Shown here one piece after another: positions 6,014 through 61,643 of a stretch of 64,000 nucleotides of DNA. The stretch spans positions 46,364 through 110,363 of the forward strand of contig CAZWNW010000006.1 in NCBI GenBank assembly GCA_964636255.1. Reading direction: 5' to 3'. Position numbers and translations under genes: made by a program. The first letter of the stretch is position 1. The number at the start of each line of letters is the position of its first letter. The notes beneath the pieces were generated by a model, which was given only the letters and a program-made list of their open reading frames with translations, ran no database searches and was not told the DNA's origin. The stretch is from an uncultured Bacteriovoracaceae bacterium (lineage in GTDB: Bacteria; Bdellovibrionota; UBA2428).

Positions 6014-6418
6014 ATGAAAAAAACCCTGGCTGCTTTTGGGATCGCAATAATGCTGAACGCCTGCCTTGGCGGTAACGGTGAGCCGTATCCGGGCCTTGTA
6101 TCTAGTATCGACTATCAGCTCATCTATGAATGTCAGAGTAGAGAGGGTGAGTATTCTCTAGAACTTTTCGAGCACACAGAAAGCGAGCTTTTTGGCCTTA
6201 TCCTGAACGATGCAGAGAGCGAGAAGAGCCAAAACTGGTTGGATTTAGAACTGTCCCATATCGAGACTGGGTGGGAGCGTTATCTGGGGGCGGGGGCCGA
6301 GTTATTGATTGATCGTAGTACAGAGGGTGAGCAGGGCTTTGAGGCCCATTTGAGTATATTTCCGCTGCCACCTGCACTGGAAACGCTCGAGATTGCCTTT
6401 GATTGCCGCTTGAAGTGA
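6014..6418 (+). CDS. Small lipoprotein, unknown function
   Basis: RBS GAGG; MKK..LNAC lipobox. Confidence 0.75.
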   Translation: MKKTLAAFGIAIMLNACLGGNGEPYPGLVSSIDYQLIYECQSREGEYSLELFEHTESELFGLILNDAESEKSQNWLDLELSHIETGWERYLGAGAELLIDRSTEGEQGFEAHLSIFPLPPALETLEIAFDCRLK

Positions 6419-6512
6419 GTCGGCTTTTGCTTCGCCGTCCCTGAGAAAAAGTTTCAACTAGCTATTCTTATATTGCGCCCGCAGTTCCTACGATCTAAGT
6501 TGAAATTTCAAG

Positions 6513-8629: not shown

Positions 8630-8636
8630 GAATTTC

Positions 8637-9281
8637 ATGGCGCAGACACTTCAAGAGTTCTTGGATCGGATTCTGACTCTATACTCAACGGGCTCGCGCT
8701 ATGAGGAAGTGCGCCGAGCAAAAGAAGAATTCTTCCGAAGGGCCGGCAAGGTGGCCGAAGGATCTGATGCATTTGAACAACAAATGCGTTCCTTCGTGGA
8801 CTGGTATCTCTTTGATCGGCCATTGGATGGTTTGGATCTTTGTCCCGTGAAAATGTTTGTGATTGAAAATAAAAACACTCTGCCTCCCGAAGAGCTGCAA
8901 ATTTTTACAGATCTCACAAAAGGAATTCATTCGATTTATGAGTATCTAAAAATGAAGGGTGATGATGTTTACCTGAAAGACCTCTTCTCTAAGGAAAACT
9001 ACGTCGTCGAAGATTCCGAAATCAATCGAGGCTTCACGAAGGGTGATATCTTTGAATCGCGCTTGATCCGCTTCAAAGACCGCTACGTTTTCGGCGGCTC
9101 TTTTGTTTTTCATCCAACCGATGTGAAAAGTTACATCACAAAACAAATTAAGAAGATTCGCTATCAAGATTATGCGCAGCGCTTGAAGCTGATTCATAAA
9201 TTGGCGACGATGCGTCTCAAGACGGATCAGTACGCCCATATTGACGTTAAGTTCATTTACACTGATCAACCGATGTTTTAG
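8637..9281 (+). CDS. Hypothetical cytoplasmic protein between carA and carB
   Basis: 214 aa ORF with RBS, in operon; beta-rich C-terminal half. Confidence 0.75.
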   Translation: MAQTLQEFLDRILTLYSTGSRYEEVRRAKEEFFRRAGKVAEGSDAFEQQMRSFVDWYLFDRPLDGLDLCPVKMFVIENKNTLPPEELQIFTDLTKGIHSIYEYLKMKGDDVYLKDLFSKENYVVEDSEINRGFTKGDIFESRLIRFKDRYVFGGSFVFHPTDVKSYITKQIKKIRYQDYAQRLKLIHKLATMRLKTDQYAHIDVKFIYTDQPMF

Positions 9282-9329
9282 GAGTTTTTTCATGGTGAAG
9301 ATAACGACTGTTTCTGTAGAGGATCTTCG

Positions 9330-45549: not shown

Positions 45550-45587
45550 ATATTTTGTACACTTCCTTAGGAGGCTTAGAGCAATTT

Positions 45588-45767
45588 ATGAAAAAGAATC
45601 TGAAAAAGGGACAAACATCATTGGAATACATGCTGATTCTTGGAATCGTGGTCGCTGTTATCGTGATCTTCGGCAAGGGGATCAAAGGTAAAATCGGCGG
45701 ATTACTTGAGTCAGTCTTCGGTGGCGCGCAAAATGCTGCGACACAAACTATGAACGACGGCGGTTGA
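45588..45767 (+). CDS. flp: Flp-type type IVb pilin
   Basis: KKG|QTSLEYMLIL class III signal; RBS GGAGG; start set at MKKNL. Confidence 0.85.
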   Translation: MKKNLKKGQTSLEYMLILGIVVAVIVIFGKGIKGKIGGLLESVFGGAQNAATQTMNDGG

Positions 45768-45789
45768 TTCCGCTGTTTTCACGATTTCG

Positions 45790-46023
45790 ATGGAATCTGC
45801 CGTGCCTCGCTCTTTCAGTGCGCAGTCTAAATCTGCTCGGCGAAATCGGGGCCAGGCCATGATCGAGTATGTGCTGCTGCTTTCGGCCGTTGCAGCGGCC
45901 TCGTTTGCTTTCTTAAAATTTTTTAGTTCCGAAATTTTTGGGGCCGGTTTGAATCGACTGCCTCAAAAAGTAAGCGTTTGTGCTTCCCGCATGCAAAATC
46001 CTGAGGTGAAGTGTGGGCCTTAA
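45790..46023 (+). CDS. Flp-like pilin
   Basis: RG|QAMIEYVLLL. Confidence 0.75.
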   Translation: MESAVPRSFSAQSKSARRNRGQAMIEYVLLLSAVAAASFAFLKFFSSEIFGAGLNRLPQKVSVCASRMQNPEVKCGP

Positions 46024-46276
46024 GGAATCGGTGGAGTCGCGTCGGGGTCAAAGCACCTTGGAGTACATTTTAATGATCGCGGTCGTAGTCGCCGCTACTT
46101 ATGTTTTGAAGGATCCTATGAGCACCTATCTCACTCAGTTTTTTGCCGGTTTCAGTGGTCGCGCTTCGCGGACCGTCGTTAAACCCACGGGGCAAAACTA
46201 TTTGAGTAATACGGGGACCAAAGGCTGTTCATCTGTTCAAGGTGGCCGAAGTGGAGGGGGTGCTTCATGCGAATGA
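46013..46276 (+). CDS. Flp-like pilin
   Basis: RRG|QSTLEYILMI. Confidence 0.75.
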   Translation: MGLKESVESRRGQSTLEYILMIAVVVAATYVLKDPMSTYLTQFFAGFSGRASRTVVKPTGQNYLSNTGTKGCSSVQGGRSGGGASCE

Positions 46277-46851
46277 AGAAAAACTCCAGAAAAGCCGGTC
46301 AAAGCCTGATGGAATTCGCGTTGGTTATCTTTATTTTCCTGAACCTCTTAGTTGTCACCTACAATAGTGTTCTCGCATTTGCGACTCAGCAGTATTTATC
46401 TTATGTCGCCTTTTTGTCCGCGCGCGCATTTCAAGCCTCCTCTGAAAACCCCGAAGGGCAGCAAACGCGCGCCCAAACCGTACTGGATCGCTTGCTTCCG
46501 GGTGATCGATTGCAGGTTCCGAAATTTAATCGTGTTCTCGCCTACAATATCAAAAAATACGTTCCGGAGGCCTCGTCGGTTCCTTACGGTACGCGTTCGC
46601 CAACACCCGCGCGAGAAGTGCGAATCCAATTTGAAGTGCCGCTTTTTCAACTACCTTTCTTCTCGCTCAGTGAAAACTTTCCCTCACTTTACCTTGAAGC
46701 CCGAAGTTATCTAGGGCGTGAACCTACGCGCGCAGAATGTCGGGCCTATTTTCAGCGCTTTTATAACTATTTTTTACCCACAGGTATCCCGACTCGGGGT
46801 GTGCCGGAGGTCAGTACCGCATGGACCGGTATGGACGACAACGATTGCTGA
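46267..46851 (+). CDS. TadE-like minor pilin
   Basis: AG|QSLMEFALV..YVAFLSARA. Confidence 0.8.
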   Translation: MRMKKNSRKAGQSLMEFALVIFIFLNLLVVTYNSVLAFATQQYLSYVAFLSARAFQASSENPEGQQTRAQTVLDRLLPGDRLQVPKFNRVLAYNIKKYVPEASSVPYGTRSPTPAREVRIQFEVPLFQLPFFSLSENFPSLYLEARSYLGREPTRAECRAYFQRFYNYFLPTGIPTRGVPEVSTAWTGMDDNDC

Positions 46852-47306
46852 AGCGTCGATCAGGGGGGCAAGCTCTGATTGAAATTCTTCCAGCAACTTT
46901 AATTTTCGTCATGGTCATCTCGGTCACGCTTCGCTATTTCGAGATTTTTAGAGACGCTGTGGAAAAAGAACAGGTCGCCCGCAATTTATTGTTTGCGAAA
47001 ATAGGCAATTCGGGAACGCTGACGACTCCGCCATCACAACTGGCGAATCCCCGACAAATCAATCCTCAGGACACTGCCACCAGTCCGATCCAGTTTGATA
47101 TCGAGGGAGGTCGCGTGGCGGTCGATTCCACCAACGCTTTCGTCGGATCCGATGCAACCTGCTTTTCCGCCTTTCCTCCAGATTGGAGAAAAGAAAACCC
47201 CATTTTTTTCCCCGGCATTGGGTCTGGTGCCTTCCCGTCTGTTTTTGTTCTGACCTACGCCGTGATCTATCGCAATGCGTCACAAGGTAGTTGTCCCTTC
47301 AACTAG
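46821..47306 (+). CDS. TadE/TadF-like minor pilin
   Basis: GG|QALIEILP..QVARN. Confidence 0.7.
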   Translation: MDRYGRQRLLKRRSGGQALIEILPATLIFVMVISVTLRYFEIFRDAVEKEQVARNLLFAKIGNSGTLTTPPSQLANPRQINPQDTATSPIQFDIEGGRVAVDSTNAFVGSDATCFSAFPPDWRKENPIFFPGIGSGAFPSVFVLTYAVIYRNASQGSCPFN

Positions 47307-47369: not shown

Positions 47370-48269
47370 ATGAATCAGTCTAAAGCATTTTTGATTAGTG
47401 CAGGCGCGGCTGTGATCGCAATGTTCCTCGTTTTCTTTTACATCAGTGAAGAAACCGATCGTGTGAAAAAATCTTTTGGTACTGAAGTCGTTGTCGTTGT
47501 CGCTAACCGCGACATCAACGAATTGGAAGAGATCCAAACCAATATGCTCACGACCAAGACACTGCCGAAATCTTTTGTTCAACCGGGTTCAGATCCAGAT
47601 CCGAAAACATTCGAAGGTTCAACGGCTGGAGCACCGATCAAGGCCGGAGAGCAAGTTCTTCTGACCAAAGTTCTTTTGAAGGGCGCAGCCACCGGAATTG
47701 CGAATCAAGTCGCCATTCATCGGCGCGCACTTTCGATTCCCGTTAATGATGTTACGGGCGTGACGCGACTCCTTCGTCCCGGTGATCGAGTTGATATCAT
47801 CGCTAAAGTTCAATACAAAGGCGGCGAAGGCATCGAGTCTGAAATCAAGACGATCATGCAAAACGTCACAGTGCTTGCGGTGGGCGAGCTCGTGCAAAAC
47901 AACATCCCGGCAGCCTTTGAGCGCGATCCTGTTAGTGGAAATCGCAAGGCCCTGAACCTTCGCGGCTCTCGAGCTTTCAACACGGTGACTGTGGAGGTAA
48001 CTCCGCAAGACGCTCAAAAAGTAATCTTTGTTGTCGAAGAGGGCGCTAATCTCTTCTTGACCCTTCGAAACCCAGTCGATCAAATATTAGCACCTGTTTC
48101 TACGGTAACTGTAGACGATGTCTTGGGTCAAAATTCACGTAAGGCCGACCGCGAACGCAATGCACGAGTTCCTGCTCAGGCGCCCGGTCCAGCGGCAGCT
48201 CCGCCACCGCGAAGAGCCGCACCGCCACCTCCAGCTTTCTTAGAGGGAGGAATTCCCATTGCGGATTAA
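47370..48269 (+). CDS. cpaB: Flp pilus assembly protein CpaB/RcpC
   Basis: SAF domain VVVANRDI, LRPGDRVDI, QNVTVLAVG, LTLRNP. Confidence 0.9.
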   Translation: MNQSKAFLISAGAAVIAMFLVFFYISEETDRVKKSFGTEVVVVVANRDINELEEIQTNMLTTKTLPKSFVQPGSDPDPKTFEGSTAGAPIKAGEQVLLTKVLLKGAATGIANQVAIHRRALSIPVNDVTGVTRLLRPGDRVDIIAKVQYKGGEGIESEIKTIMQNVTVLAVGELVQNNIPAAFERDPVSGNRKALNLRGSRAFNTVTVEVTPQDAQKVIFVVEEGANLFLTLRNPVDQILAPVSTVTVDDVLGQNSRKADRERNARVPAQAPGPAAAPPPRRAAPPPPAFLEGGIPIAD

Positions 48270-49983
48270 AATATTTTTACTTCTGAGTTTTTCAGGCCTT
48301 CTAGGCCTAAGCGCTTTCGCTCAGTCGCTTAATGTAGGCGAGGATCAAGCCGTACCACGTCTTGATGGTCGAGAGGCTGATATTTTAGGGGGCATTCCCA
48401 ATACAGATATCGACCGAATTTATCGTGATCGACTGGATAGGGGAATACTAATTCCTGAATTTGGCATCGAAGATGTTTTCCTCACCAAAGGTTCAAAGGA
48501 AACGCTGGATTTAGAGCGTTTTGGTTTCATTTGTATCGAACCGACAATTGGGAATATTGTCGTCTCACGCGATCCGCCGGGAGATCCCACCGTACCACGT
48601 AAATCTCGCACAATTGAGGCCGTGACCGAGGGCACCACGATGTTGGTGATTACGGAGCGCGCACCGGGGCAAACGGTTTGTAAAGCCGAACAGCGTGGAC
48701 GACTTTTGAAAGTTTTTCGAGTCAGCGTAACCAATAAAGACGTTATGCAGGCACTTTTAGAACTTCGCGCTCTCATTGGGGGCATTGAGGGAATCAAGCT
48801 GCGTGTGGTCGGCGACAAAATTGTTGTCGATGGCGAAATCATCGTGCCCGCAGAAATCGAGCGATTTGCGCGCGTAATGAATCCGGATGGCGGATTCATG
48901 AAGGGAAATAAAAATCTTCCCGTGATTTTGAATTTGGTTCAGGTATCGCCACTTTCGCAGCAGTACCTGGCGCAAAAAATGGAAGAACAAATTGCAGGCG
49001 GCCCCGATCGCCCCCGCGACATTCGCGTGAAGGTCGTCAATGGTCGCTTCTTTCTTGAGGGTTCCGTAGATCGTCTCGCCCAGCGGGAAGAAGCCGAGAA
49101 GATTTGTCAGGCTTATATTCAACCGCGTTTAGAAGTTGCCAAAGCCGGTGTCAGTTATCCACAGCCTCAGGGCGAGGGAGCTCCGACGGATTGTAATAAC
49201 CTGGTGTGGGTGCGAGCGAGTCCTACTCCCGATCCTCCGGATGTTGTTTCGGTGCGCGTAGACTTCGTTAGTTTAAGTAAAAATTATCTGAAAGAGTTTG
49301 ATTTTAGCTGGAGCCCCTCGATCACCGAAAATTCCGGCGTTGAATACAGTTCCGACTTGGGACGGATTTCGTCTGGTTTCGTAGCAACGCTCAGTAGTCT
49401 CTTTCCAAAGCTTTACCATGCGCAGAGCCACGGCTACGGACGAATTTTGAAATCGGTGACATTGCTGACGAAGGATAACACGGACTCGAGTCCCACAACT
49501 CCGCCGCCGCAATCGACTGTGAGTGAATCATTCGAGCTGCCCTATCAGGAATGTCAGTTGGACGCCAATGGTCAGCAGGCCTGTAGAGTGGCTACGATGC
49601 CCGTTTCGACCACAGTCAAAGTCGGCGTGCGCTCGGTGAAGGGCTCGGATAAAATCAATATGGTCGTCGATGCGGTCAGTGAATCTGTACGCGGTGACCC
49701 TGTGGGAGGACGCCCACCAAAGACCACTCAAACTGTTGGCACGAACATCTCAGTTGCCTCCGGCGAAAGCGCAGCGCTGGGTGGAATGGTTACAGAGAGT
49801 AGGACTGTCGGTTATTCGCGACGTCCAGCAGCAGGCAGCGCAGTAAATATTTTCGATATATCAAGAAAGCATACGTTCCTGGATGACAAAACGCAGTTCA
49901 TTATCTTTGTAACGCCAACGAAGCAAAAAACTCCCAGTCCTGGCACAGAGGAGCTTAAGCGGAAATTCCGCTTGAGACGCTGA
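48259..49983 (+). CDS. cpaC: Flp pilus secretin CpaC/RcpA with BON-like domains
   Basis: Signal peptide; C-terminal secretin motifs (GESAALGGMV; TQFIIFVTP). Confidence 0.78.
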   Translation: MRIKIFLLLSFSGLLGLSAFAQSLNVGEDQAVPRLDGREADILGGIPNTDIDRIYRDRLDRGILIPEFGIEDVFLTKGSKETLDLERFGFICIEPTIGNIVVSRDPPGDPTVPRKSRTIEAVTEGTTMLVITERAPGQTVCKAEQRGRLLKVFRVSVTNKDVMQALLELRALIGGIEGIKLRVVGDKIVVDGEIIVPAEIERFARVMNPDGGFMKGNKNLPVILNLVQVSPLSQQYLAQKMEEQIAGGPDRPRDIRVKVVNGRFFLEGSVDRLAQREEAEKICQAYIQPRLEVAKAGVSYPQPQGEGAPTDCNNLVWVRASPTPDPPDVVSVRVDFVSLSKNYLKEFDFSWSPSITENSGVEYSSDLGRISSGFVATLSSLFPKLYHAQSHGYGRILKSVTLLTKDNTDSSPTTPPPQSTVSESFELPYQECQLDANGQQACRVATMPVSTTVKVGVRSVKGSDKINMVVDAVSESVRGDPVGGRPPKTTQTVGTNISVASGESAALGGMVTESRTVGYSRRPAAGSAVNIFDISRKHTFLDDKTQFIIFVTPTKQKTPSPGTEELKRKFRLRR

Positions 49984-49984
49984 A

Positions 49985-52168
49985 ATGGCTTTGCCTACTA
50001 AACGCCCACCCAGCCCCCGCACCGGCCACATCATCGCCGTATTGGGTGGAAAAGGTGGCGTCGGTAAATCAGTTTTCTCTGTGAACCTGGCACTAGCGCT
50101 CAGCGCGGATTTGGGCCGCAGTGTCGCTCTGGTTGATTGTGATCCGCATAGCACGGGTGATTTGGGTCTTATCGCAGGTGTGAAGCAAATGAACGGCAGT
50201 GGCGAGCAAATTATGGAAGGGAAGGTCACCGAGGTGGCCAAGCTCCAGCAGATTCTCACGCCGATTTTATCGCCCAAGCCACAAAGCCCCGTGCTTTTAC
50301 TGCAGATGTTACAAAATATGGAGCGGCTCGAGGGGATGGACCCCAGCAAGCTAGATCTAGCGTTGAAAATGATTCGCCGTGGATTTCCAATCACGGTCGT
50401 CGATTGCGGTAACGAGCCATCGGGTGCGATATCTGCTGTTCTTGATAATGCCACCATGATGTTGGTAGTGACGAATCCTGATATTCTCGTTTTGAACCAA
50501 ACGCGGCGGGTTCTGGATCTTCTACAAAGTGAGCTTTACCCAAATGATATCGTGAAGGTCATTGCTAATCGATTTCAGGCACAGGGACCTTTTTCACCTT
50601 CATTCATCGAGACAACATTGCGTCGTCAGGTGATCGGAGTGATCCCAGAGGATCCTGCAGTTGCCGGTACCTCGCTATCGCGGGGCCAGCCCTTCATCGT
50701 TTCCCATCCTAATTCCGTTTTGACTCAGGCTTACATGAGTCTTTCGCGTATGATCATCGAAAAGCGTTTGCTGGATCAATACTCACAAATGAGCAAGTCC
50801 GAAAAGTCGCGTAGCACTCCCAAAACTGCCGCGGAATCTAATGTGGTATTGCTAAAAAAAGGCACTGGAAAAGAGCCCTCTGATCCGCGCAGTGCATTTA
50901 AGTTGCGCGTCAACGCCATGTTAGTTGAACGCATGGACCTAAAAAAAGAAGAACTTGATCGTTCGATGGATCTGCAAAAGAAAGCGGAACTTCGAACACG
51001 CGCCCAACGCATCATTGCGGAAATCGTCAACACAGAAGATCATCCCTGGAAAGATCGTATTGAGAGTGCGCAGTTAACAAAAGAGGTATTGGACGAGGCA
51101 TTGGGACTGGGCCCTCTCGAAGACTTTCTGGCCGACCCCGCGGTGACCGAAATTATGGTAAATCGCGCCGACCTCATTTACATCGAAAAAAACGGGAAGC
51201 CGGCGAAATCAAAAGTTACCTTTTCAAGTAATGAACAGCTGCGAGCAATTATCGAACGGATCGTGAATCCCATCGGTCGCCGCATTGATGAAAAAACCCC
51301 TTATGTTGATGCGCGGCTTGCCGACGGATCTCGTGTGCATGCGATCATCCCTCCTCTGGCGCTGGACGGTCCGATGGTGACCATCCGGAAATTTCCGTTG
51401 AAACGTTTGGGGCCGGACGATCTGATCAAATACGCCAGCTCGACGCCCGAAATGATGGCTTTTCTAAAAGCCGCGATCGAAGCCCGCGCCAACGTACTCA
51501 TCAGCGGTGGAACCGGTTCTGGTAAAACGACGCTGCTCAATATCTTGAGTGGCTACATTCCCAATTCCGAACGCATTTTGACTGTGGAAGATTCTGCGGA
51601 ATTGCAGCTTCAGCAAGAACACGTCGGCCGACTTGAAGCTCGACCTCCCAATATGGAGGGTTCGGGCGCGGTGACCATTCGTGATCTGGTGAAGCAAACT
51701 CTGCGTATGCGACCGGATCGAATCATTATCGGAGAAGTCCGTTCCGGCGAAGCTCTTGACATGCTGCAGGCCATGAACACCGGTCATGACGGATCCATGG
51801 CAACTGTTCACTCGAATTCTCCGCGTGATGCGATCGCGCGACTCGAAACTTTGGTGATGATGGCGGGAATGGAACTTCCAGTTGAAGCCATTCGTCAGCA
51901 AATCGCAGGGGCCGTAAACGTGATCGTGCAACAATCTCGACTTGCTGATGGCTCGCGAAAAATCACACACGTCACAGAAATTTTGGGCTACAACGCCGCC
52001 AACAACTCTATCAATATGCAGGACATCTTTGTTTTTCGTTCGGGCGGTTTGGACAAGGATCATCGGGTCGTTGGTCGCCATATGGCTACCGGTTTTATGC
52101 CACAACTGATGGAACGCTTCATCGCAATGGGCATCAGTGTGCCCAAGGAGATTTTTAGAGCGGCATGA
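49985..52168 (+). CDS. cpaF: Fused CpaE/TadZ (MinD-like) and CpaF/TadA pilus ATPase
   Basis: N-terminal GGKGGVGKS; C-terminal [31 protein letters not shown]. Confidence 0.9.
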
Positions 52169-53031
52169 CGATGTTTGGCATTAGCCTCGCAAGTGGGGCC
52201 CTTTTTTTTATCGCCGTCTACCTATCTTTTGATCGGCTTTATTTGGCCGTTTGGGGACGTCTGAAAGCGGTCTCAGAGGATACGCTCATTGCCTATGAGG
52301 ATCTTTTTTTTAAGCGCACGTTGAATCAAGTGATCATGACTCAGGTTGTGGTTGCGGGGATCGTGAGTCTGGGGATTTTTTATCTTTTTATTTCCGTTCC
52401 ACTGATGTCACTTGGTCTGGCGATTGCTGCCTTCTACTTTTCTTGGCGTTTGCCTCGTTATTACCTAAACAGCATGCTTCGCCGTCGCCGAGTCGCAGAT
52501 TTTTCAGTTCAGATGGTCGATGGCTTGACGCTGATGGGAAACGCGTTGAAGTCAGGTATGAACTTGGCTCAATCATTAAAAATTGTAGTGGACGAAATGC
52601 AGGGACCCATCGCCCAGGAATTTCGGCTGATCCTAGATAATAACCGCATCGGTCAAACCCTGGAGGCGGGATTTGATAATCTGGCCCGACGTTTACCATC
52701 CGAAGACGTGCAAATGTTTGTGACTAGCGTGAATATTCTGAAAGAAACTGGCGGCAACATGGCGGAAACCTTTCAGACCATCACAACAACCATCCGCGAG
52801 CGCATCAAACTCAACAGCAAAATCGAAGCCATGACCGCCCAAGGAAAATCCGCTGCGGCCATCGTTTCGGCTCTTCCGTGGGGTTTGGGAGCGCTTCTTT
52901 ATGCGATTGACCCCGTCTTGATGGGACCACTTTTTTTCCATCCTGCCGGGTGGGCGATCTTATTTGTGGTTTTGCTTTTGCAAATCACAGCTTTCTTTTT
53001 GATCAAAAAAATCACGACAATTCGTGTTTGA
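52165..53031 (+). CDS. tadB: Tad inner membrane platform protein TadB
   Basis: DGLTLMGNALKSG, GPIAQEF, ETGGNMAE, IRERIKL. Confidence 0.9.
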   Translation: MTMFGISLASGALFFIAVYLSFDRLYLAVWGRLKAVSEDTLIAYEDLFFKRTLNQVIMTQVVVAGIVSLGIFYLFISVPLMSLGLAIAAFYFSWRLPRYYLNSMLRRRRVADFSVQMVDGLTLMGNALKSGMNLAQSLKIVVDEMQGPIAQEFRLILDNNRIGQTLEAGFDNLARRLPSEDVQMFVTSVNILKETGGNMAETFQTITTTIRERIKLNSKIEAMTAQGKSAAAIVSALPWGLGALLYAIDPVLMGPLFFHPAGWAILFVVLLLQITAFFLIKKITTIRV

Positions 53032-53121
53032 TAGGATCGTCGAATCCAATGACTTCTTTCTGACGCAAGGTTTGAGACTTTGCTCAGGCAAAGGCAACGG
53101 CTTCTCAGATATAATCTTGAA

Positions 53122-54357
53122 ATGCATCTTATTGGGATGGTGCTCATGTTGATTGCTGCACCTCTTGCGGCGCAGGTAATATCGCATCAGACACGCACCT
53201 CCGCTATTCGATCGGATGAAAATCAAGGCTGTTTGGATGGCAGGAAGGCGGTTGACTTAGCTTGGCAATTTCCTGATCCAAAAATCCAGAATTCTCAGGA
53301 TTGTTTTGCCTATGCTAGCGTGGCACTCTTCGAAGCAGCTCTAGCTCGAAAAACCAGGACCCACTTTAATCTTTCTGAGGAATATGCAGTTTTCCGGCAA
53401 CGTCGCTACGGTCAACGAAGCAGCCTTTTACAGAGAAAACGTTCCGGTGACTTTAAACAGACTGCAACTGCCGGCCATAACACCGAGGATTTTGCGAGAT
53501 ATTTGCTCAGAAATCCAGAGGCCCTTATCTGGAAAACTCAGATATCAAAGGAGTCTTATCATTCAGCAACGGCAAAGGCTCTTGAGGAAAATCTCGCAGA
53601 ATTCCGAGAACTTCTTCAACAAAAGGGCGCTCAAAGGCTCATGCAACTTTCTCGCAAGAGCTTCGATAAGAAGCAGAAAGAAATCTGTAGGGACTTTCCT
53701 AGTTGTAACAACGAGGAAAACAGGAAACTGCAAGAATTGCTGAAAGCAGCAGATTTGACATTGACGAAGGTCGCGACAAAATCATTGAACTCAACTGAGG
53801 CTGAAAAATCCAAGATGGCATTGCTGTCAGCCACAGAAAGTCTCAGGGCTGAGTCTGTTAAAATTTTCACAGAAGTTCAAAAACACCTTCCAGAATGGTT
53901 CCTGGTGAATTGTCTCTACACTTCTGAGACCGGTGGATCGCTTGGCCCTGCTCTCTTGGAGGATCAAGAGATGAAGAAATGCATAGAAAAACATGATCCG
54001 GAAAGTCTGGAGCCGATTCGTCTTGGTCTTATTCGATTAGAGGACTTGTATCGAGGGATGAGCGGTGTTGTCGCGCGGTACAAAACGGATAGTGACCAAT
54101 GCCTAAACATAGGCCGTCAACTTGAGAGAGATTTCAGATCTCAGCTCTGCAAAGGTCTTCCAATTTCCATTTCCTTCGTAAACGGTGTTGATGAGAATAA
54201 TAGAGTCCTGCGACACGCTGCAGTTATCAGTGGTTTCATGCCTGGATCAACTCCTGATGGTGATGTCTGGCTGGTTCGTGATTCAGCCTTTGGCAAAACA
54301 GTGCCTATGCCTACACGGGAACTTTGCCGAATCGAAAATGCATTTGTCATTCAGTAG
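53122..54357 (+). CDS. Secreted papain-like (C1) cysteine peptidase
   Basis: QNSQDCFAYA (Gln, Cys), HAAVISGF (His), WLVRDSAFG; start set at MHLIG. Confidence 0.65.
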   Translation: MHLIGMVLMLIAAPLAAQVISHQTRTSAIRSDENQGCLDGRKAVDLAWQFPDPKIQNSQDCFAYASVALFEAALARKTRTHFNLSEEYAVFRQRRYGQRSSLLQRKRSGDFKQTATAGHNTEDFARYLLRNPEALIWKTQISKESYHSATAKALEENLAEFRELLQQKGAQRLMQLSRKSFDKKQKEICRDFPSCNNEENRKLQELLKAADLTLTKVATKSLNSTEAEKSKMALLSATESLRAESVKIFTEVQKHLPEWFLVNCLYTSETGGSLGPALLEDQEMKKCIEKHDPESLEPIRLGLIRLEDLYRGMSGVVARYKTDSDQCLNIGRQLERDFRSQLCKGLPISISFVNGVDENNRVLRHAAVISGFMPGSTPDGDVWLVRDSAFGKTVPMPTRELCRIENAFVIQ

Positions 54358-54542
54358 TAGTTTCTAAAATGATAGGCCTGGGCGCCAAATTCCCGAATTG
54401 GAAAGAGCCCAGACTGCAGAAGTTGAAATATTACGCAGCAGAGTTGCGACAGAGGATTTAGAATCGACGCGAAGACCTGAGAGCTGAAAATTAATCGTCT
54501 GTTTATCGGATCGCCCATAGCTCATGCTACAATTCAATTCAC

Positions 54543-55538
54543 ATGACTTTTGAAATTAAGCCCTCCTACACAATTCGGAAAAGTGCTTTCAGTCTTCTCG
54601 AGATACTTGTGGCAGTTGCTATCTTAGGAGTGGCTTCATTTGCACTTATGGAACTGATGAATAGCCTTGCGAAAAGCAATCTCAACATGCAACAGCAAGC
54701 CGAGGCCACCCACCTACACAACGAAATCTATGCGCTTCTTCGAAATCCGGATGCTTGTCTAGAGACTTTCTCCAACACGGCAGTCGATGCGGGTTCTACA
54801 GCAGTCAATTCACTGAAACGTGCAAACGGCACCGAAGCTTTCAACACCACAGATCTTTATGCGGGAAAAAAACTTCAGATCCCCGTGATGAGCGTGGGCG
54901 ATTTTACTCTAGACGGGAGCGACCCAGCTGTAGGTCAGGCGGTGTTGTGGTTGACGATCACCAAAATGGGCGAACCCCTGGGTCCAAAGGCGCTTCGAAG
55001 AGCTGTCAAATTGCACGTGAAGCGCAACAACCCGGGCGACAACAAAGTTACAAGTTGTGTGGCTGTGGGCGGAAATCTGACTTCGAGCGCAAGTGGCGGG
55101 GCTTCTTACACTGCCTGGGGCACTACTAATTGCGCTTCTGGTTATGAGAAGGCCTACGACGGTGTGGCGGCTGTGGCCTACTTCACGGGTGGGGTCGGAA
55201 GCTCTCCTGTATGTAAAGAAGGCGCCAACTTTACTGCGGCCGGAAGTTTCAGTTGGGGAACTGGCGGCTCAATCGCTAGCACTCAATCTATTTCATGTGC
55301 CGTTTGCGTCGGAAATAACTACGTTGCGTGGGGAACAACTTCCTGCGCTGCAGGCTTTACAGCTGCATACAGCGGCTATGCTGTAATTCCTTATCATACA
55401 GGAACTGTTGCGAGTTCTCCGATCTGCAAGGAGGGGGCCGTGTTTCCGACTCCCGTAACTGGTTTCTATTGGGGTTCAGGAGACAAGGCGTCCCCCTCCA
55501 CCAGTCCTGATCTTTCCTGTTCCCTCTGCGTAAGATAA
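54543..55538 (+). CDS. Type IV pilin-like protein with two Cys-rich C-terminal repeats
   Basis: SA|FSLLEILVAVAILG N-methylation motif; repeats YxAWGTTxCxxG. Confidence 0.8.
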   Translation: MTFEIKPSYTIRKSAFSLLEILVAVAILGVASFALMELMNSLAKSNLNMQQQAEATHLHNEIYALLRNPDACLETFSNTAVDAGSTAVNSLKRANGTEAFNTTDLYAGKKLQIPVMSVGDFTLDGSDPAVGQAVLWLTITKMGEPLGPKALRRAVKLHVKRNNPGDNKVTSCVAVGGNLTSSASGGASYTAWGTTNCASGYEKAYDGVAAVAYFTGGVGSSPVCKEGANFTAAGSFSWGTGGSIASTQSISCAVCVGNNYVAWGTTSCAAGFTAAYSGYAVIPYHTGTVASSPICKEGAVFPTPVTGFYWGSGDKASPSTSPDLSCSLCVR

Positions 55539-55655
55539 GCAGAATTTTGCCACCAATAGTACTTGGGTCGCTTTGATCGCTTTTGCAATCAGTATGATGA
55601 GTTGAAAGGTGGAAGTAGGTTGACCGATATTCCGATCCGGGCCTAAGCGGGATAA

Positions 55656-56681
55656 ATGTTTGATTTTTACTCTGGTGAAAGTTTTAATTCTTCGCAGGCT
55701 ATTGGTTTTTTCTTACTTGCAATATGCGCAAGTTCCACAGGCCTGTCGTCGCTTTCCGCCCAAGCTAAAATTCCGGGATCAAGCACCGAGAACTTCACTT
55801 TTTACAGCTCCCCGGGCTTTGGCTGTGATGGAGTGGACTTAGGTGGATCTCTTACTAGGCCGGCTGACGGAAATTCCAAAGCCTTGGTTATTTTTGCCCA
55901 TGGCTCTGGGACAACAGACCGCGATGAGAGCGTGGGGGACTTCAAACCCTTTCGCGATCTTGCAGAGGATTTCGCTCAAGCTCAAGTCGCCACCTTACGG
56001 TTCGATAAGCGAGGATCAACAAAAGAAAGTTTGAGTTCTATCAAGGATCCAGCCGAGCTTAGCCCTAAAGCCTACATTGAAGATCTGAAAAGTTTGATTG
56101 AATACTCAAAGCGTAGAGAGGATCTGCAAAAATTGCCTCTCTTTCTGCTCGGGCATAGTGAGGGCGTTAATTTTGTTGTTGAGATTGCAAAGGAGCGCGG
56201 TGATTCCCTCGCAGGAATCATCTTGCTGGCAGGTCTAGGTCATTATGGAATTCACGAGACACTTTTGCGTCAATTTGAATCGTTGAAGGATTTGCCCGGA
56301 GCGGAGGGCAAAAAATACGCCGCACTTTTTCAAGACGGCAGTAGATATTTCAATGACCTTCTTGCCGGAAGGATCGCGGACGATCAAACCTTTATGAATG
56401 TTTATCCCAAATATTGGAGTGATTGGATTGCGATCACAAAGAGGGCTTCCCGTGTTGCTGCTGAGGTTGAGGTTCCAAGTTTTTTGGCACAGGGTGATGC
56501 GGATTGGAATGTGACTCGGAAGGATTTTGATTCTTTGTCGGCCGCTCTTTCTAAAAAATCCAATCATGAATCTTTTTATGTCCACGGCCTCAACCACTAT
56601 TTAACTATAGGTACATCGACTCAAGTCGATAAGGGCCTAAGCAGCAGGATCTCAAACTGGATAACGAGACTGCTGAAATGA
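55656..56681 (+). CDS. Secreted alpha/beta hydrolase
   Basis: HGSG, LRFDKRG, GHSEG nucleophile elbow, QGDAD, GLNH. Confidence 0.85.
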   Translation: MFDFYSGESFNSSQAIGFFLLAICASSTGLSSLSAQAKIPGSSTENFTFYSSPGFGCDGVDLGGSLTRPADGNSKALVIFAHGSGTTDRDESVGDFKPFRDLAEDFAQAQVATLRFDKRGSTKESLSSIKDPAELSPKAYIEDLKSLIEYSKRREDLQKLPLFLLGHSEGVNFVVEIAKERGDSLAGIILLAGLGHYGIHETLLRQFESLKDLPGAEGKKYAALFQDGSRYFNDLLAGRIADDQTFMNVYPKYWSDWIAITKRASRVAAEVEVPSFLAQGDADWNVTRKDFDSLSAALSKKSNHESFYVHGLNHYLTIGTSTQVDKGLSSRISNWITRLLK

Positions 56682-56707
56682 ATAGAGTTGTTCCTCTAAA
56701 TATTGCA

Positions 56708-58171
56708 TCAATATCCGTAACCACGATTAGGAACTAGCGGAGGACGACGAAGTCGCACTTCCTCGAGGGCGGCCTCGACGTTAATGATTCCATTAGTCGT
56801 GACTTTGTTTTCCAGCGCCAGCGAATGAGTCGCAGTTTTCATGATGATCTCTTTCAGTTCAGGACCCGTGAGAGCGGGATTGTCGTCCAGGAGTCGAGCC
56901 GCAAGCCCCGCAACTTGCGGAGCTGCCATCGAAGTTCCGCTCATCTTGAGCGTCAGATTTTCGGGTGCAAGACTGGGTACTGCCACGCCCCATGCGGCTA
57001 CGTTTACAAAGGTTGGGGAATAGCATGAAAATCTCGCAATGTTGCCGTTCTGCGTGACGGCCGCAACTGTTAGTACGTTTGCAAATTCACGTGAAAGCAT
57101 AGCCGGATAAACGGGATAGCGGTCCAAATTGCCTGAGTCCTCAATGTGGGGATTTCCGCCATCATTCCCTGCTGCGATGACGAAGAGTGTTTTGGGATTT
57201 TGAGTGAAGAGTTGTCTCCAACCGGCAGCATTCGCCTCCAACACTGCGTTCACCATATAATAGAGCGTTTCCTTGCGCTCGTTATTCATTTCGGTTTCAA
57301 GTGGCAGTTTGGCTTTGTTTAACTCCTCAAACCAAAGTGCCAAGAGAGTGCGGTAAACGTTCATTCCAGAAACGCCCAAGCTAAGATTGACCACTTGGAA
57401 TTCCATGCTGGAAACATAGGCGCTAATGCGGGCAGAGCTTGCCATTTCGCGTCGTCGCATTACTTGGACTTGTTGTTCAAGAGCGGCACGATCATCCAGG
57501 TAACTTTTAAAGGGACCTTCACTCATGCCCAGCTTGTCAAAGAAATCGAGCTGAACTTCGCGCATAAAACTTGCCATGCCGACCGAGGGAGTTCGTTCCA
57601 GATTGTACTTCGTGCGAAGCCACCCGCCTTCCAGTGTGCGCGCTTCGTTGGGGCCTGAACTTGCACTGAAGACATTCATGCTTTGAATTTGGGTCGACTT
57701 CGGCGATTGCTTTTGAATGATCCCCGCTACATGCGTGCCATGCGAAAGGCCTGTAATGAATTGAATGTAGGCACGTAGTTGAGGGTCTTCGTTCACGCGT
57801 CGGATAGCCTGAACGTCACCATCTTCTAGGCTAGACGCAAAATCTACGGCTTCTTTTGCGCTGAGAAAATAACCAAAGGGATCGGGCTGCTGAAATACGG
57901 ATCTCATCCAATCAGGGAAAAAGTTGGAGTCGTTTGAAACTAGGTTCCAGCCCCAGATATTGTCGATAAAACCATTTTTTGTGTCGTCCGTGTTGGCCAG
58001 TCCGTAAAGTTCTGAATACTCAGTGAGCGCATTCCCTTTTAGACTTTCGTGAAAGAGATCTACGCCTTCATCGATCACTAAAACCCGAGCATCGAAAGCC
58101 TGGGTGGCAGTCGCCCACGACAGTGACAGTAGAATTCCCAAGTTGGATGCGGATTTAAATATTTTCTTCAT
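56708..58171 (-). CDS. Secreted S8 subtilisin-like serine protease
   Basis: VIDEGVD, HGTHVAGII, AAGND, GTSMAAPQVAG; signal peptide. Confidence 0.92.
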   Translation of the reverse strand: MKKIFKSASNLGILLSLSWATATQAFDARVLVIDEGVDLFHESLKGNALTEYSELYGLANTDDTKNGFIDNIWGWNLVSNDSNFFPDWMRSVFQQPDPFGYFLSAKEAVDFASSLEDGDVQAIRRVNEDPQLRAYIQFITGLSHGTHVAGIIQKQSPKSTQIQSMNVFSASSGPNEARTLEGGWLRTKYNLERTPSVGMASFMREVQLDFFDKLGMSEGPFKSYLDDRAALEQQVQVMRRREMASSARISAYVSSMEFQVVNLSLGVSGMNVYRTLLALWFEELNKAKLPLETEMNNERKETLYYMVNAVLEANAAGWRQLFTQNPKTLFVIAAGNDGGNPHIEDSGNLDRYPVYPAMLSREFANVLTVAAVTQNGNIARFSCYSPTFVNVAAWGVAVPSLAPENLTLKMSGTSMAAPQVAGLAARLLDDNPALTGPELKEIIMKTATHSLALENKVTTNGIINVEAALEEVRLRRPPLVPNRGYGY

Positions 58172-58481
58172 GTGTAGGGCCCCTCTGCAAGCTGACCGAA
58201 AGTAACAAATCTAAGCCTTCGTTACAGTGAAAACATATTTACAAAACGAAACGCCGCAGCACAGCCTTCGTTGCGCTGCGTGGCACGAGATCGATTAGTC
58301 TTGTTTATGCACTAGAGGCAGCCGCGGAGAGTTTTCTTGAAAGCCCCTTGCTCAACGCGGGGCGGCGGCGCCAAGAATTCGTGGATTTCGATCGCAATTT
58401 CTATTCAAAGTGCCTTCTATTTGACACACGAGGCTCTTGCAGAGCTGCTAGACTAAAATTCGTTTGGTGGGAGGTTTTTCT

Positions 58482-60095
58482 ATGTTCAGTTTGGGAAGGC
58501 GTACGACGCTTTTGGGGGCTTCACTTCTATTATCGCTTTGCTTTGTGCCCGTGGCCGAGGCGGGGGTGAACGTCAACAACGGAAACTTCTATGTCGCATA
58601 CACGGATTTTTTAATAAACAATCCAGGTTTGAATCTCGACATCACGCGCACCTACAACAGTCGTTCAAGTTACGTTAAAGGATTTTTCGGCGTTGGTTGG
58701 TCCTCTGAATACGAAGGCTATCTAGAATTCAAAGGTGCTGACATTCATTATTTTGAAGGTGGTGGTGGGAACGTTGTCGTCTTCAAAAAGTCCGGCAAAA
58801 ATTGGACTAACAATCTCTACGGAAAACAACAGATCGATAAGGTCGCTACAAATTTTGTTTTAGAAACGTCCATAGGCAAAAAAATCACCTTCAATTCGAA
58901 GGGACGTCCCACGCGCATTAGCGACAACAGCAAAAATTTCATTGAATTCGTCTATACCAACGGACAAATTTCTCTGATTCGCGACAATTTTAATAATCAG
59001 GTTCGCGTTAGCTGGAAGAATTTCGCTGGCGTCCCGCGCATTGTCCGTGTCGAGCGGGACGTGATGAAAGCTTCGTACCAATACAATGCCAAGGGGCAGT
59101 TGTTGAAGGTGACTGGAGCGGATGGCATTCCCTACAGCTATGAATATGACGATGAATTTAATATGACTGCCATTGTCTATAACGACGGCACTCGTAAAGA
59201 AATGAGCTACAACAAAACCCGCGACTGGATCACCAAATTTAAAGATCGTGATAATTGGACCACAGGTTATGATTATTTTTCGGACAATCTTGATCCGGAA
59301 AATAAATTTGGCACAACAGTTGTTCGTAGTCTTGCGGGAAGCAAAGAAAAAGACGAATCCCGTTTCTGGTATGAATTTCGAAAGCGTGCCGATGGTAGTC
59401 GCTACAATCATCGGGCTGTGACCTATGTTAATGGAATCGTGACCGAGACGTTTTTTACCGAGTGCTGCGGCACTCCGATCGAAATCGGTCAATGGCAGTT
59501 ATCGGCGAAGGATGCCGGATCAAACTCAAAGAGCTTGGCTTGGATCAATCCTCGTGGATCAGTGAAACGCACGAAATTCAGCTATGACAAAGACGGTCTG
59601 CTGGCGAAGAAAATCGCACCGGACGGGACAGAAACACGTCTCGTTTATAATCCGAAATTTAAAAAAGTTTCTAAAGTGACCATCGGATCGCGGGCCTTTT
59701 CCTATGGTTACGATGTTAAGGGCAATCTGCGTGAAGCGATTGACGAGGGTGCGAAGCGTAAGCTGACTTTGAGTTACAGCGTAGAAGGCCGCATAACGAA
59801 AATTCAAGATGTCGGGCCTGCCGCAAACGGCAAAGTGCTCGCGAAAGATGTGCTTTTCTCCTACGACAAACTTGGAAGGCCGAGCGTCGTTAAAGAAGTT
59901 CGCAAAGGTGGGGGCGGTGGTGTGATCCGCATGACTTACAATAATCGCGGCGAAGTTTCAGGAGTCTTGAATGCCAAAGGTCGAAGTCTGGCATCCGACA
60001 AGGATCTTGAAAGTGCGCGAGAAGTCGCCCTAACTTTTCAGAGCCTATTAGACATTGTACAGCCGGCCGGTGTGACACTAACTCCCGAGGGATGA
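58482..60095 (+). CDS. Secreted Rhs/YD-repeat protein without toxin tip; probable Bd0109-like hit-locus protein
   Basis: RBS GGAGG; signal peptide; NVNNGN..RTYNSRS..GFFGVGW (DUF6531-like) followed by YD repeats. Confidence 0.8.
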   Translation: MFSLGRRTTLLGASLLLSLCFVPVAEAGVNVNNGNFYVAYTDFLINNPGLNLDITRTYNSRSSYVKGFFGVGWSSEYEGYLEFKGADIHYFEGGGGNVVVFKKSGKNWTNNLYGKQQIDKVATNFVLETSIGKKITFNSKGRPTRISDNSKNFIEFVYTNGQISLIRDNFNNQVRVSWKNFAGVPRIVRVERDVMKASYQYNAKGQLLKVTGADGIPYSYEYDDEFNMTAIVYNDGTRKEMSYNKTRDWITKFKDRDNWTTGYDYFSDNLDPENKFGTTVVRSLAGSKEKDESRFWYEFRKRADGSRYNHRAVTYVNGIVTETFFTECCGTPIEIGQWQLSAKDAGSNSKSLAWINPRGSVKRTKFSYDKDGLLAKKIAPDGTETRLVYNPKFKKVSKVTIGSRAFSYGYDVKGNLREAIDEGAKRKLTLSYSVEGRITKIQDVGPAANGKVLAKDVLFSYDKLGRPSVVKEVRKGGGGGVIRMTYNNRGEVSGVLNAKGRSLASDKDLESAREVALTFQSLLDIVQPAGVTLTPEG

Positions 60096-60099
60096 TGAT

Positions 60100-60435
60100 A
60101 TGAAAAAAGTCTTAATGATGAAAATCAAGTTTGTTAAAACCGCGACTGTATTCGCGACGCTTTTAGTTGGCTCTCTTTCTTTTGCTCAAGGGCTTCCAGA
60201 GTTTACAGGAGCCGGAGCCCCATCAATGTTTGCCGGTCAAGGCATGGTAGCGCCGCCCATGGGTGCCCAGCCTGGAACTTTTGTTAGTCCCCAGCGGATG
60301 GTAATGGGCGAACAGCCTGCCTATGCGCAGGTTGGTGCGCAGGGGTGCGACCCGCGTGGTTATGTCGGCCCCGTGACGGGCCCCATCCAGTCAAATGGTA
60401 TGCCAATGCCCCTTCAGATGGTCCCAGGTCACTAA
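60100..60435 (+). CDS. Small secreted Gly/Pro/Gln/Met-rich, probably disordered protein; positional Bd0108 analogue
   Basis: Signal peptide ending SFA; low-complexity mature part; 4 nt after the Rhs gene. Confidence 0.7.
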   Translation: MKKVLMMKIKFVKTATVFATLLVGSLSFAQGLPEFTGAGAPSMFAGQGMVAPPMGAQPGTFVSPQRMVMGEQPAYAQVGAQGCDPRGYVGPVTGPIQSNGMPMPLQMVPGH

Positions 60436-60520
60436 TTCGGGAAGCACATTTTTTTGGGACAGATTTCAAGGCAGATCTTCCGCCTTTGCGCGCCTTGCTC
60501 GCCTAAGTTAACCTTCATGG

Positions 60521-61114
60521 ATGATTCGGATTTGTGGTGGCAGGCATAAAGGTCGGCAGCTTCGTACGCCTAAAGGCGATTTGACTCGACCCACTACTGA
60601 GGCCAATCGGGAATCTCTTTTCAATATAGTCGACATCTCCCTTCAGCATCCGATGACCCATATTTTGGATTTATTTTCCGGTTCCGGAGCCTTGGCTTTA
60701 GAGGCGGTATCGAGGGGGGCGGAATCGGCGGTCCTTTTTGATTCGTCTAAGGAGGCCGAGAGCGCTTCGAAGCAGAATTTTAGGGAGATTGCCCCTGAAA
60801 TTCCTTTGCGTATTTTTACTGATCCCAAAATTGAAAAGTGGGCTGGGCTCTTGGTGAATTTAGGCCCGGAATTTCGCCCCATCGATACGGTCTTTTGTGA
60901 CCCGCCCTACGGGAAGGGTTTTGCTCAAAAAGTCTTGGAATCTCTGCTTCCTCAGGGGGATTTGTGGGCCCCAGGGGCGATCTTTTGTTTTGAAGTTGGC
61001 AAGAAAGAAGTTTTCCCGATTCCTAAATCCCTTGAGATCCTTAGAGACAGGACGCGCGGAGACAGCCGTTTTCTCGTCCTTAGGAAGAGCACTTTTGACT
61101 TGAACGAGATATGA
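60521..61114 (+). CDS. rsmD: 16S rRNA G966 methyltransferase
   Basis: MIRICGGRHKGR, TRPTT..RESLFN, LDLFSGSGALALEA.SRGA, DPPY. Confidence 0.92.
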   Translation: MIRICGGRHKGRQLRTPKGDLTRPTTEANRESLFNIVDISLQHPMTHILDLFSGSGALALEAVSRGAESAVLFDSSKEAESASKQNFREIAPEIPLRIFTDPKIEKWAGLLVNLGPEFRPIDTVFCDPPYGKGFAQKVLESLLPQGDLWAPGAIFCFEVGKKEVFPIPKSLEILRDRTRGDSRFLVLRKSTFDLNEI

Positions 61115-61133
61115 GCCTGATTAGGCTCTTCCT

Positions 61134-61643
61134 GTGCCGAAAAAGATCGCCGTATATGCAGGCAGTTTTGATCCCATCACTCTGGGCCATCTTGATGTTG
61201 CCGAGAAAGTTCGAAGTCTCTTTGATGAGATCCACATTGTCGTAGCCGATAATCGACAAAAAAAGACTTTGTTCACGGCCAATGAGCGCGTGAAATTCAT
61301 TCAAGACAGTCTGGAACACCGGGGAATGACAAAAACCTTTCATGTGGCTTCGACCGAGGGGCTGGTGGTGGACTATTGCCGTCTAAACCACGCTTCACAC
61401 TTAATTCGAGGTCTGCGGGCAGTGAGTGATTTTGAGAGCGAATTTTCGCTGGCGGTAATGAATCGCCGCTTGGAATCAGGCGTCACGACTGTTCATGTGA
61501 TGGCTGACGAGAAATATTTCTTCCTATCGAGTTCACTGGTAAAAGAGGTGGCAGGCTTTGGTCGTTCCGTAGATGACTTTGTTACGCCGACCGTGGCTGC
61601 TGCTTTGAAAACAAGATTTAATCAGCTCCGAAACAGTCCTTGA
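61134..61643 (+). CDS. coaD: Phosphopantetheine adenylyltransferase
   Basis: AVYAGSFDPITLGH, RGLRAVSDFESE, SSSLVKEVA. Confidence 0.95.
   Translation: MPKKIAVYAGSFDPITLGHLDVAEKVRSLFDEIHIVVADNRQKKTLFTANERVKFIQDSLEHRGMTKTFHVASTEGLVVDYCRLNHASHLIRGLRAVSDFESEFSLAVMNRRLESGVTTVHVMADEKYFFLSSSLVKEVAGFGRSVDDFVTPTVAAALKTRFNQLRNSP

Follow-up and report, generated by a model that had tools for sequence, protein, structure and literature searches.

A probable hit module, Bd0109-type Rhs protein and small exported partner, set apart from the tad operon in an uncultured Bacteriovoracaceae bacterium

Results

The Rhs gene and its small downstream partner

The window, as we call the whole 64,000-nucleotide (nt) stretch of DNA analysed here, belongs to the genome of an uncultured Bacteriovoracaceae bacterium (G000; 3.5 Mb, 48 contigs). 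At positions 58482–60435 of its plus strand, it carries two neighbouring genes, for a secreted Rhs/YD-repeat protein and for a small exported protein, which together are very probably this lineage's orthologue of the Bdellovibrio hit module (Bd0109/Bd0108), with a function that would be carried over from Bdellovibrio. The first gene (58482–60095), recognized from the open reading frame (ORF) table, Pfam, NCBIfam, BLAST and AlphaFold2, lies in a frame open from 58464 and starts with the ATG at 58482, 8 nt downstream of a GGGAGG sequence, to encode 537 amino acids (aa) before a TGA stop. Pfam identified DUF6531 at residues 29–95 (2.7e-14) and RHS_repeat (1.3e-22), and NCBIfam identified YD_repeat_2x. 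Regular expressions found neither PxxxxDPxG nor DPxG in this protein, and PxxxxDPxG is likewise absent from Bd0109 and from all 97 family members of 480–620 aa. Since the chain stops 8 residues past its C-terminal helix, it has no toxin domain. Judged from its sequence, the protein thus appears to be a truncated Rhs/YD-repeat protein that is exported via Sec and carries no toxin, a mini-Rhs of the kind reported for Bd0109. Indeed, a preliminary description of the locus had proposed a secreted 537-aa Rhs/YD protein without cleavage motif or toxin, and the ORF, the Pfam and NCBIfam matches and the motif check all agree with it.

The AlphaFold2 model of the Rhs protein, built on a 14-sequence alignment (predicted local distance difference test, pLDDT, 82.7), displays a disordered signal peptide, ~38 beta strands in YD hairpins and a single C-terminal helix (residues 506–529). 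Foldseek comparison of this model with the PDB retrieved Rhs effectors of the type VI secretion system (T6SS), teneurins and TcB-TcC shells (E 1e-19 to 1e-10), and its global superposition on these solved shells is poor (query-normalised TM-score, TMq, 0.14–0.40; root-mean-square deviation >11 Å). In the model, the protein therefore has the repeat type of Rhs shells, is roughly half as large as these and fails to superpose as a closed cocoon; with 537 aa, ~38 strands and such TMq values, no closed YD shell big enough for a toxin was found. Note that its vicinal cysteines C328-C329, within a TECCGTP motif present in 73 of the 97 family members, are, together with C83 of the small partner, the only cysteines of the mature pair.

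The second gene (60100–60435, plus strand) occupies the position of bd0108 and encodes a small exported partner rich in G, P, Q and M, as characterized by the ORF table, its composition, a family profile and AlphaFold2. Its ATG (60100) lies 4 nt past the TGA of the Rhs gene, in a different reading frame, and a GAGGGA located 7 nt 5′ of this ATG, inside the 3′ end of the Rhs gene, is its ribosome-binding site. With the 4-nt gap and this internal Shine-Dalgarno sequence, the small gene is translationally coupled to the Rhs gene. The N-terminus of the 111-aa product, MKKVLMMKIKFVKTATVFATLLVGSLSFA|QG, reads as a Sec signal peptide (residues 1–29), and the mature part of 82 residues is composed of G (18%), P (16%), Q (11%), M (10%) and A (10%), with 0% K and one Cys; the ORF table and this composition match the signal-peptide, G/P/Q/M-rich protein that had been described 4 nt downstream. 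The homologues of the protein align from Met7, and the ATG at 60118 could be the true start instead of 60100; the better Shine-Dalgarno sequence precedes 60100, and the mature protein is identical for both starts.

No Pfam or NCBIfam model matches the small protein, and a word-indexed search of 5.8 billion proteins found only the protein itself. With tblastn, homologues were identified in 5 other genomes belonging to 4 further genera of its family (1.8e-8 to 9e-4), and a profile of ten members, run against 1.84 billion proteins, retrieved 36 cluster representatives, with a single one falling outside 79–123 aa. In the family alignment, the first half is variable and rich in G, Q, M and P, and the second half is conserved: in the window protein, a variable low-complexity segment (residues 30–57) precedes a conserved core (residues 58–111), in which Cys83 is invariant and G70, E71, R86 and the C-terminal His (H111) are nearly invariant. 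Given these homologues and their conserved core, the small protein is therefore the product of a real, conserved gene. AlphaFold2, run with the family alignment, gave a mean pLDDT of 54, with the signal-peptide helix as the sole secondary structure and residues 30–111 (pLDDT 44–53) devoid of any. Disorder-promoting residues make up 64% of the mature protein, and these predictions are consistent with the disorder of the mature part that had been put forward in the preliminary description. Direct repeats within the small gene that might support an in-frame deletion, such as the 42-bp deletion of HD100, are only short and imperfect (e.g., a 16-nt stretch present twice, 45 nt apart and with 81% identity, or a perfect 8-mer 12 nt apart) and no more than expected of a low-complexity gene.

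Orthology with Bd0109 and distribution in the phylum

The Bdellovibrio bacteriovorus HD100 genome (G135; 3.78 Mb, one contig) was identified by the unique exact match of the published primer Bd0110F (PMC3818213). In the corresponding region (L086), cpaB, cpaC, a 739-aa cpaF, tadB, a 550-aa ORF and, after a 15-nt gap, a 101-aa ORF follow each other on one strand. The 101-aa protein carries ASA|DE and RRHDDTVSREIKGS and ends with Q101, as the published Bd0108 does (PMC3818213, PMC4267844), and because of this match its 550-aa neighbour is Bd0109. When compared to Bd0109 with BLASTP, the window Rhs protein displays 31% identity over 414 residues (E 4e-46), in addition to a collinear N-terminal match, and a search of the complete HD100 genome matched it to Bd0109 alone; the four further RHS genes of this strain (bd0328, bd1292, bd2719 and bd3309; PMC3818213) gave no match to it at E ≤ 0.001. 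In the reverse direction, the window Rhs gene is the sole significant match of Bd0109 across the whole of G000 (3.6e-41; runner-up 0.27), and this search found no second Rhs gene in the genome. Moreover, the resemblance extends outside the generic YD repeats to the C-terminal helix (TFQSLLDIVQPAG in the window, TFNNLLDIIAPA in Bd0109), which runs across the whole family. The relationship to Bd0109 suggested beforehand thus held in both directions of the reciprocal BLAST, and such a clean reciprocal best match points to the window Rhs protein as the orthologue of Bd0109.

A scan with one genome per species yielded 257 loci, and gene order was assessed in the best 80 of these 257, all of which come from Bdellovibrionota / Bacteriovoracaceae / Halobacteriovoraceae-type metagenome-assembled genomes plus Peredibacter sp. 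The order cpaB-cpaC-cpaF-tadB-Rhs was found in most of these 80 loci and in HD100, with a gap between tadB and Rhs that is typically 100–250 nt. The conserved position assumed in the preliminary description was therefore recovered, both as tad gene order and as a small exported ORF, in most of ~110 loci. On a larger scale, the Rhs-family profile had a match in 388 of 401 genomes sampled evenly across the phylum (97%), in 330 of the 336 high-quality ones and in 48 of 48 high-quality Bdellovibrionaceae genomes, nearly always as a single copy. The Rhs gene thus belongs to the core genes of the phylum. It follows that its presence indicates Bdellovibrionota and nothing more specific on lifestyle; as a pointer to predation, for which the locus had also been taken, it holds for phylum membership and is weak beyond that. 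Note that bd0109-bd0113 have been placed in the attack-phase core gene set of Bdellovibrio and like organisms (BALOs; PMC5430801).

Two unusual situations were encountered among the homologues. In three genomes of the g35 genus (G201:C46:12056-13663, G386:C26:24371-25999 and G281:C4:28306-29907), the Bd0109-family gene is broken by a single in-frame TAA and is intact in the other g35 genomes; a pseudogene common to the three, recoding, or a problem of sequencing may account for this. In addition, a one-contig 2.7-Mb Bdellovibrionaceae genome (L127; G024:C1:2425102-2426754 and downstream) contains two Bd0109 homologues, in a layout that fits the published B. exovorus. The small ORF after its Tad-linked copy carries IGEDPNM, like NPGEDPN of Bd0108, and has no cysteine; for such a layout, the partner of the other copy is reported in the literature to retain CxxC and to be devoid of that N-terminal region. 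In a genome of this type, Bd0108 may be split into two halves, each carried by one of two paralogous partners.

Divergence of the partner

In every evaluable Bacteriovoracia-type locus (79 of 79), the Rhs gene is followed by a signal-peptide ORF of 58–140 aa (two further loci end there). Among 30 Bdellovibrionaceae loci, nearly all likewise have a small exported ORF after it. In their mature parts, 105 of these partners form 65 clusters that are not linked by BLASTP at E < 1e-5, next to Rhs proteins that can be aligned end to end, and the partner therefore evolves far faster. As an example, the window and the related locus L097 display 77% identity for the Rhs protein versus 46–49% for the partner, and the fast evolution of the partner, already suspected in the preliminary description, is apparent at both scales.

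Despite this divergence, some features recur, with the reserve that phylogeny is ignored in the following three comparisons. At least one Cys is present in the mature part in 64 of the 65 clusters, versus 28 expected at the proteome Cys content of 0.88%; GE-x(2-21)-C occurs in 29 clusters versus 13.8 ± 3.1 in shuffled sequences, with 0 of 2000 shuffles reaching 29; and CxxC occurs in 14 clusters versus 4.6 ± 2.0 in shuffles. The GE...C feature is present in the window partner (GE70-71...C83) as well as in Bd0108 (GE34-35...C56xxC59), of which residues 32–40 form the conserved part of the region contacting Bd0109 (PMC4267844). At the level of such short motifs, this shared feature is a resemblance and no proof of homology. 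Moreover, Rhs proteins have 0, 2 or 4 Cys, and their Cys counts co-vary with those of the partner (~104 loci, phylogenetically confounded): the partner has an odd count in 41 of 46 loci with a 2-Cys Rhs protein and an even count in 22 of 23 loci with a 0-Cys Rhs protein, both figures being subject to the same confounding.

These observations may suggest the following hypothesis, which we consider rather unlikely as a whole: the Bd0109 family would have, across Bdellovibrionota, a universal and hyper-divergent companion held by GE...Cys, whose Cys would act with those of the Rhs protein as a thiol/disulfide switch. In the window, Cys83 would then face the vicinal Cys328-Cys329 as a possible redox or covalent-capture switch. 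If true, the hit partner would extend beyond Bdellovibrio, and the many predators in which homology searches miss it would have it as well. Comparative genomics has indeed described many predators as lacking Bd0108 (e.g., PMC11870529); since the partner is unrecognisable by sequence and almost always present, this ‘lack’ may reflect divergence and not loss.

The tad operon, the insertion and the promoter region

The pair lies downstream of a tad operon on the plus strand. At the head of the operon (45555–47306), translations revealed Flp-type pilin and TadE/F-like pseudopilin ORFs (45555–45767, 45790–46023, 46013–46276, 46267–46851 and 46821–47306), whose short products display a hydrophobic stretch preceded by a G/xxxxEY-type motif (KKGQTSLEYMLILG, RGQAMIEYVLLL, RRGQSTLEYILMI, KAGQSLMEFALVI and GGQALIEILPAT) and which, from this motif, we take to be of the Flp/TadE class. 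They are followed, all on the plus strand, by cpaB/rcpC (47370–48269), assigned by tblastn, by its position in ~75 related loci and by 40% identity to bd0113 of HD100, with Pfam RcpC/SAF in the orthologues of near relatives; by the secretin gene cpaC (48259–49983), assigned by synteny and tblastn, with Pfam Secretin in the orthologues of near relatives; by the ATPase gene cpaF/tadA (49985–52168; 727 aa), with 45% identity to the 739-aa bd0111 ORF of HD100 and with ParA/CbiA and T2SSE (Pfam) in the orthologues of near relatives; and by the platform protein gene tadB (52165–53031; Pfam T2SSF, 2.6e-18; 44% identity to bd0110 of HD100). CpaF itself (window 49985–52168; L086 6757–8976; 727–739 aa) joins an N-terminal ParA/CbiA-like domain to the T2SSE ATPase in a TadZ-CpaF-like fusion, which was kept from the window lineage through HD100.

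The strand and order of the pair relative to flp-cpaB-cpaC-cpaF-tadB are as the preliminary description had them; adjacency does not hold, as four genes on mixed strands (53080–58171) stand between tadB and the Rhs gene. According to Pfam and the comparison of loci, this lineage-specific insertion encodes a 425-aa protein of unknown kind (53080–54357, plus strand), a 331-aa prepilin-type protein (54543–55538, plus strand), an alpha/beta hydrolase (55656–56681, plus strand; Pfam) and an S8 subtilase (56708–58171, minus strand; Pfam). The prepilin-type protein contains an internally duplicated, Cys-containing C-terminal module, the S8 protease is secreted, and the cargo looks envelope- or prey-directed. 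The insertion covers 5.1 kb of the 5.4 kb that separate the end of tadB from the Rhs start, and its GC content is 0.45–0.47 versus ~0.50 in the flanks. In 80 related loci, the 10 kb around the pair contain none of its four genes. In the nearest relative, whose Rhs protein is 78% identical, the gap between tadB and Rhs is 90 nt, and a 110-aa ORF, rsmD, coaD and an aminotransferase gene follow as in the window. In L097, the same junction holds another insert of 1.7 kb (6321–7723), with an IS200-type Y1 transposase and a minus-strand leucine-rich repeat protein, and L018 has ~1.5 kb of extra DNA there (about 8546–10000). From these relatives, with adjacent genes or with different inserts, we therefore conclude that 53080–58171 is a lineage-specific insertion at a repeatedly struck junction. 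No terminal or flanking repeats were found around the 5.1-kb insertion, and a mobile-element mechanism can therefore not be named. In addition, the tad operon is inverted and convergent with the pair in 5 of the best 80 loci, which constitute one genus-level group (L009–L012 and L014), and the tadB-Rhs junction has been disrupted independently several times.

Because the insertion contains an opposite-strand gene, co-transcription of the pair with the tad genes, as reported for HD100, is implausible. Cut off in this way from the tad operon, the pair should therefore have its own promoter, which we presume from the ORF table to lie in the 310-nt intergenic region (58172–58481) from which the S8 protease and Rhs genes diverge. 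No convincing sigma-70 or sigma-54 site was identified upstream of the pair, the sigma-54 matches across the window being at chance level (27 versus 30 ± 5), and an Rfam scan of 52900–61200, which includes this region, returned no match. On the other side of the pair, an rsmD-type methyltransferase gene (60521–61114, plus strand; Pfam Cons_hypoth95) is likewise the neighbour in L002, L003, L005, L097 and the P0002 contig; as a conserved boundary, it closes the locus on the downstream side in this family and lies outside the system.

Discussion

For the choice that obligate bacterial predators make between attacking prey and prey-free growth, the hit locus is the classic genetic handle. The function published for the Bdellovibrio Bd0109/Bd0108 pair (PMC3818213, PMC4267844) offers the frame in which the window pair can be read, the HD100 phenotypes concerning type IVa pilus extrusion and prey-independent growth (PMC3818213). 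In the window lineage, both proteins would be exported via Sec. If B. bacteriovorus is a guide, the Rhs protein would probably reside close to the Tad/type IV pilus machinery, in either the periplasm or the cell envelope. Its binding to the small protein would be weak and would involve the conserved core of the latter, GE-QPAY-x-GC-x2-R...NG...H (residues ~58–111), and the resulting complex would modulate pilus extrusion and retraction, feeding a signal that couples prey contact to growth. The pair would be transcribed from its own promoter, the tad operon being cut off by the 5.1-kb insertion. Binding, cellular location, pilus effect and lifestyle switch are all features that we infer from the Bdellovibrio work.

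Several observations weigh against such an assignment, most of them on the side of the small protein. BLASTP detected no similarity between this protein and Bd0108 (E 7.5), tblastn of Bd0108 against G000 gave nothing under E 1.3, and profile-profile comparison with hhalign of the mature window family and the Bd0108 group returned a probability of 0.1%. The small protein is nearly uncharged and rich in G, P, Q and M, whereas Bd0108 is charged and polar, and its conserved part is C-terminal, whereas the Bd0109-binding part of Bd0108 is N-terminal (PMC4267844). Moreover, the pair is not contiguous with tadB, and with a minus-strand gene in between, co-transcription of the HD100 type is implausible. 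Across the window family, the Bd0108 group and three Bacteriovoracaceae groups, hhalign probabilities were 0.0–0.1%, two of the Bacteriovoracaceae groups matching each other at 88.5%. Demonstrable homology to Bd0108 was rejected on the basis of these values, in agreement with the preliminary description, which had claimed no sequence similarity for the small protein. As similarity is undetectable, the equivalence to Bd0108 rests on position, size, export signal, predicted disorder and the Cys/GE...C feature. The 111-aa ORF might then encode an unrelated, family-specific secreted peptide that occupies the slot after the Rhs gene and is no functional equivalent of Bd0108, as its lack of sequence or profile similarity, its different composition and the location of its conserved region at the opposite protein end would suggest. 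We hold this to be improbable, since most of ~110 loci from three deep lineages have, in exactly this slot, a small ORF for an exported protein with Cys, since Cys occurs in all but one of the BLAST-unrelated clusters at more than the expected frequency, and since the enriched GE-x(2-21)-C motif is present in both the window protein and Bd0108.

The layout of an Rhs gene followed by a small ORF is also the classic one of toxin and immunity genes, and the best Foldseek matches of the Rhs model are T6SS Rhs effectors, so that the pair could be seen as a degenerate polymorphic-toxin cassette, an Rhs effector minus its toxin tip followed by a former immunity gene. However, neither PxxxxDPxG/DPxG nor a C-terminal domain occurs in any of the 97 family members, a Sec signal peptide takes the place of the PAAR/VgrG-linked N-terminus, and the small protein is itself exported and predicted to be unstructured. 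In addition, the single copy in 388 of 401 genomes with a fixed tad synteny is the opposite of what toxin cassettes display, with their patchy and variable distribution. The missing motifs and the phylum-wide distribution led us to reject the toxin/immunity reading, and we give it hardly any credit. A structural role is a serious rival: the pair could be an accessory of the Tad (Kil-like) predatory pilus, e.g., an adhesin, a pilotin or a tip module contacting prey, and no regulator of type IVa pili and of the growth switch. The linkage to cpaB-cpaC-cpaF-tadB is indeed tight and phylum-wide, bd0109-bd0113 are among the attack-phase core genes of BALOs (PMC5430801), variable tip complexes are found on the Kil-type Tad pili of predators (PMC12075869), and the hypervariability of the partner (65 unrelated clusters) is expected of a surface or prey-facing component. 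In contrast, the phenotypes seen experimentally in HD100 relate to the extrusion of type IVa pili and to growth without prey (PMC3818213), a periplasmic behaviour was observed in E. coli for tagged Bd0108 and Bd0109 (PMC3818213), and the pair is separated from, or inverted relative to, the tad operon in the window genome and several others, and yet kept. We regard the accessory role as unlikely, with more in its favour than the unrelated-peptide explanation.

Altogether, the two genes are best read as the orthologue of the hit module in this lineage. The find adds no new kind of system and is largely ordinary; its added value is modest and consists of a defined partner family with a conserved core, together with a case in which the pair has become uncoupled from the tad operon. 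This core (GE, Cys, Arg and the C-terminal His) offers a defined target for binding and mutational studies.

Comparison with known systems

The closest comparison is the hit locus of HD100 (PMC3818213, PMC4267844). The two loci share an Rhs protein that is a reciprocal best match, with a Sec signal, DUF6531 and YD repeats, a C-terminal helix, and neither toxin nor cleavage motif. In both, the pair lies downstream of cpaB-cpaC-cpaF-tadB on the same strand, and a ~100-aa exported, Cys-containing protein, predicted to be structure-poor in the window, is encoded next, after 15 nt in HD100 and 4 nt in the window. However, the Rhs proteins are 31% identical, the small proteins have no detectable similarity, and the window partner has one Cys, almost no charge, a G/P/Q/M-rich composition and a C-terminal core, whereas Bd0108 has CxxC, charged residues and an N-terminal conserved part. 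In addition, the 5.1-kb four-gene insertion uncouples the window pair from the tad operon.

A published precedent for the situation of the window pair is found in Bacteriovorax (Halobacteriovorax) marinus SJ, where the Bd0109 homologue BMS_0182 (35% identity) lies in a syntenic tad/hit locus (PMC3526173, PMC4267844), with the small signal-peptide neighbours BMS_0183/0184 lacking homology to Bd0108 (PMC4267844, PMC3526173). The window Rhs protein is ~28–32% identical to Halobacteriovorax-type members. Unlike the two small, Cys-rich and charged partners of B. marinus SJ, the family of the window has one partner, which belongs to another sequence family. Arrays of small signal-peptide genes have also been reported beside Bd0109 homologues in Bdellovibrionales wastewater bins (PMC10469934).

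With the canonical Rhs/YD-shell toxins (T6SS Rhs effectors, TcB-TcC and teneurin), the window protein shares the YD-repeat beta-hairpin architecture (Foldseek E 1e-19 to 1e-10). It differs from them in its length, about half of theirs, in having neither an aspartyl-protease cleavage motif nor an encapsulated toxin, in its poor superposition (TMq 0.14–0.40), and in being apparently exported via Sec with no PAAR/VgrG link.

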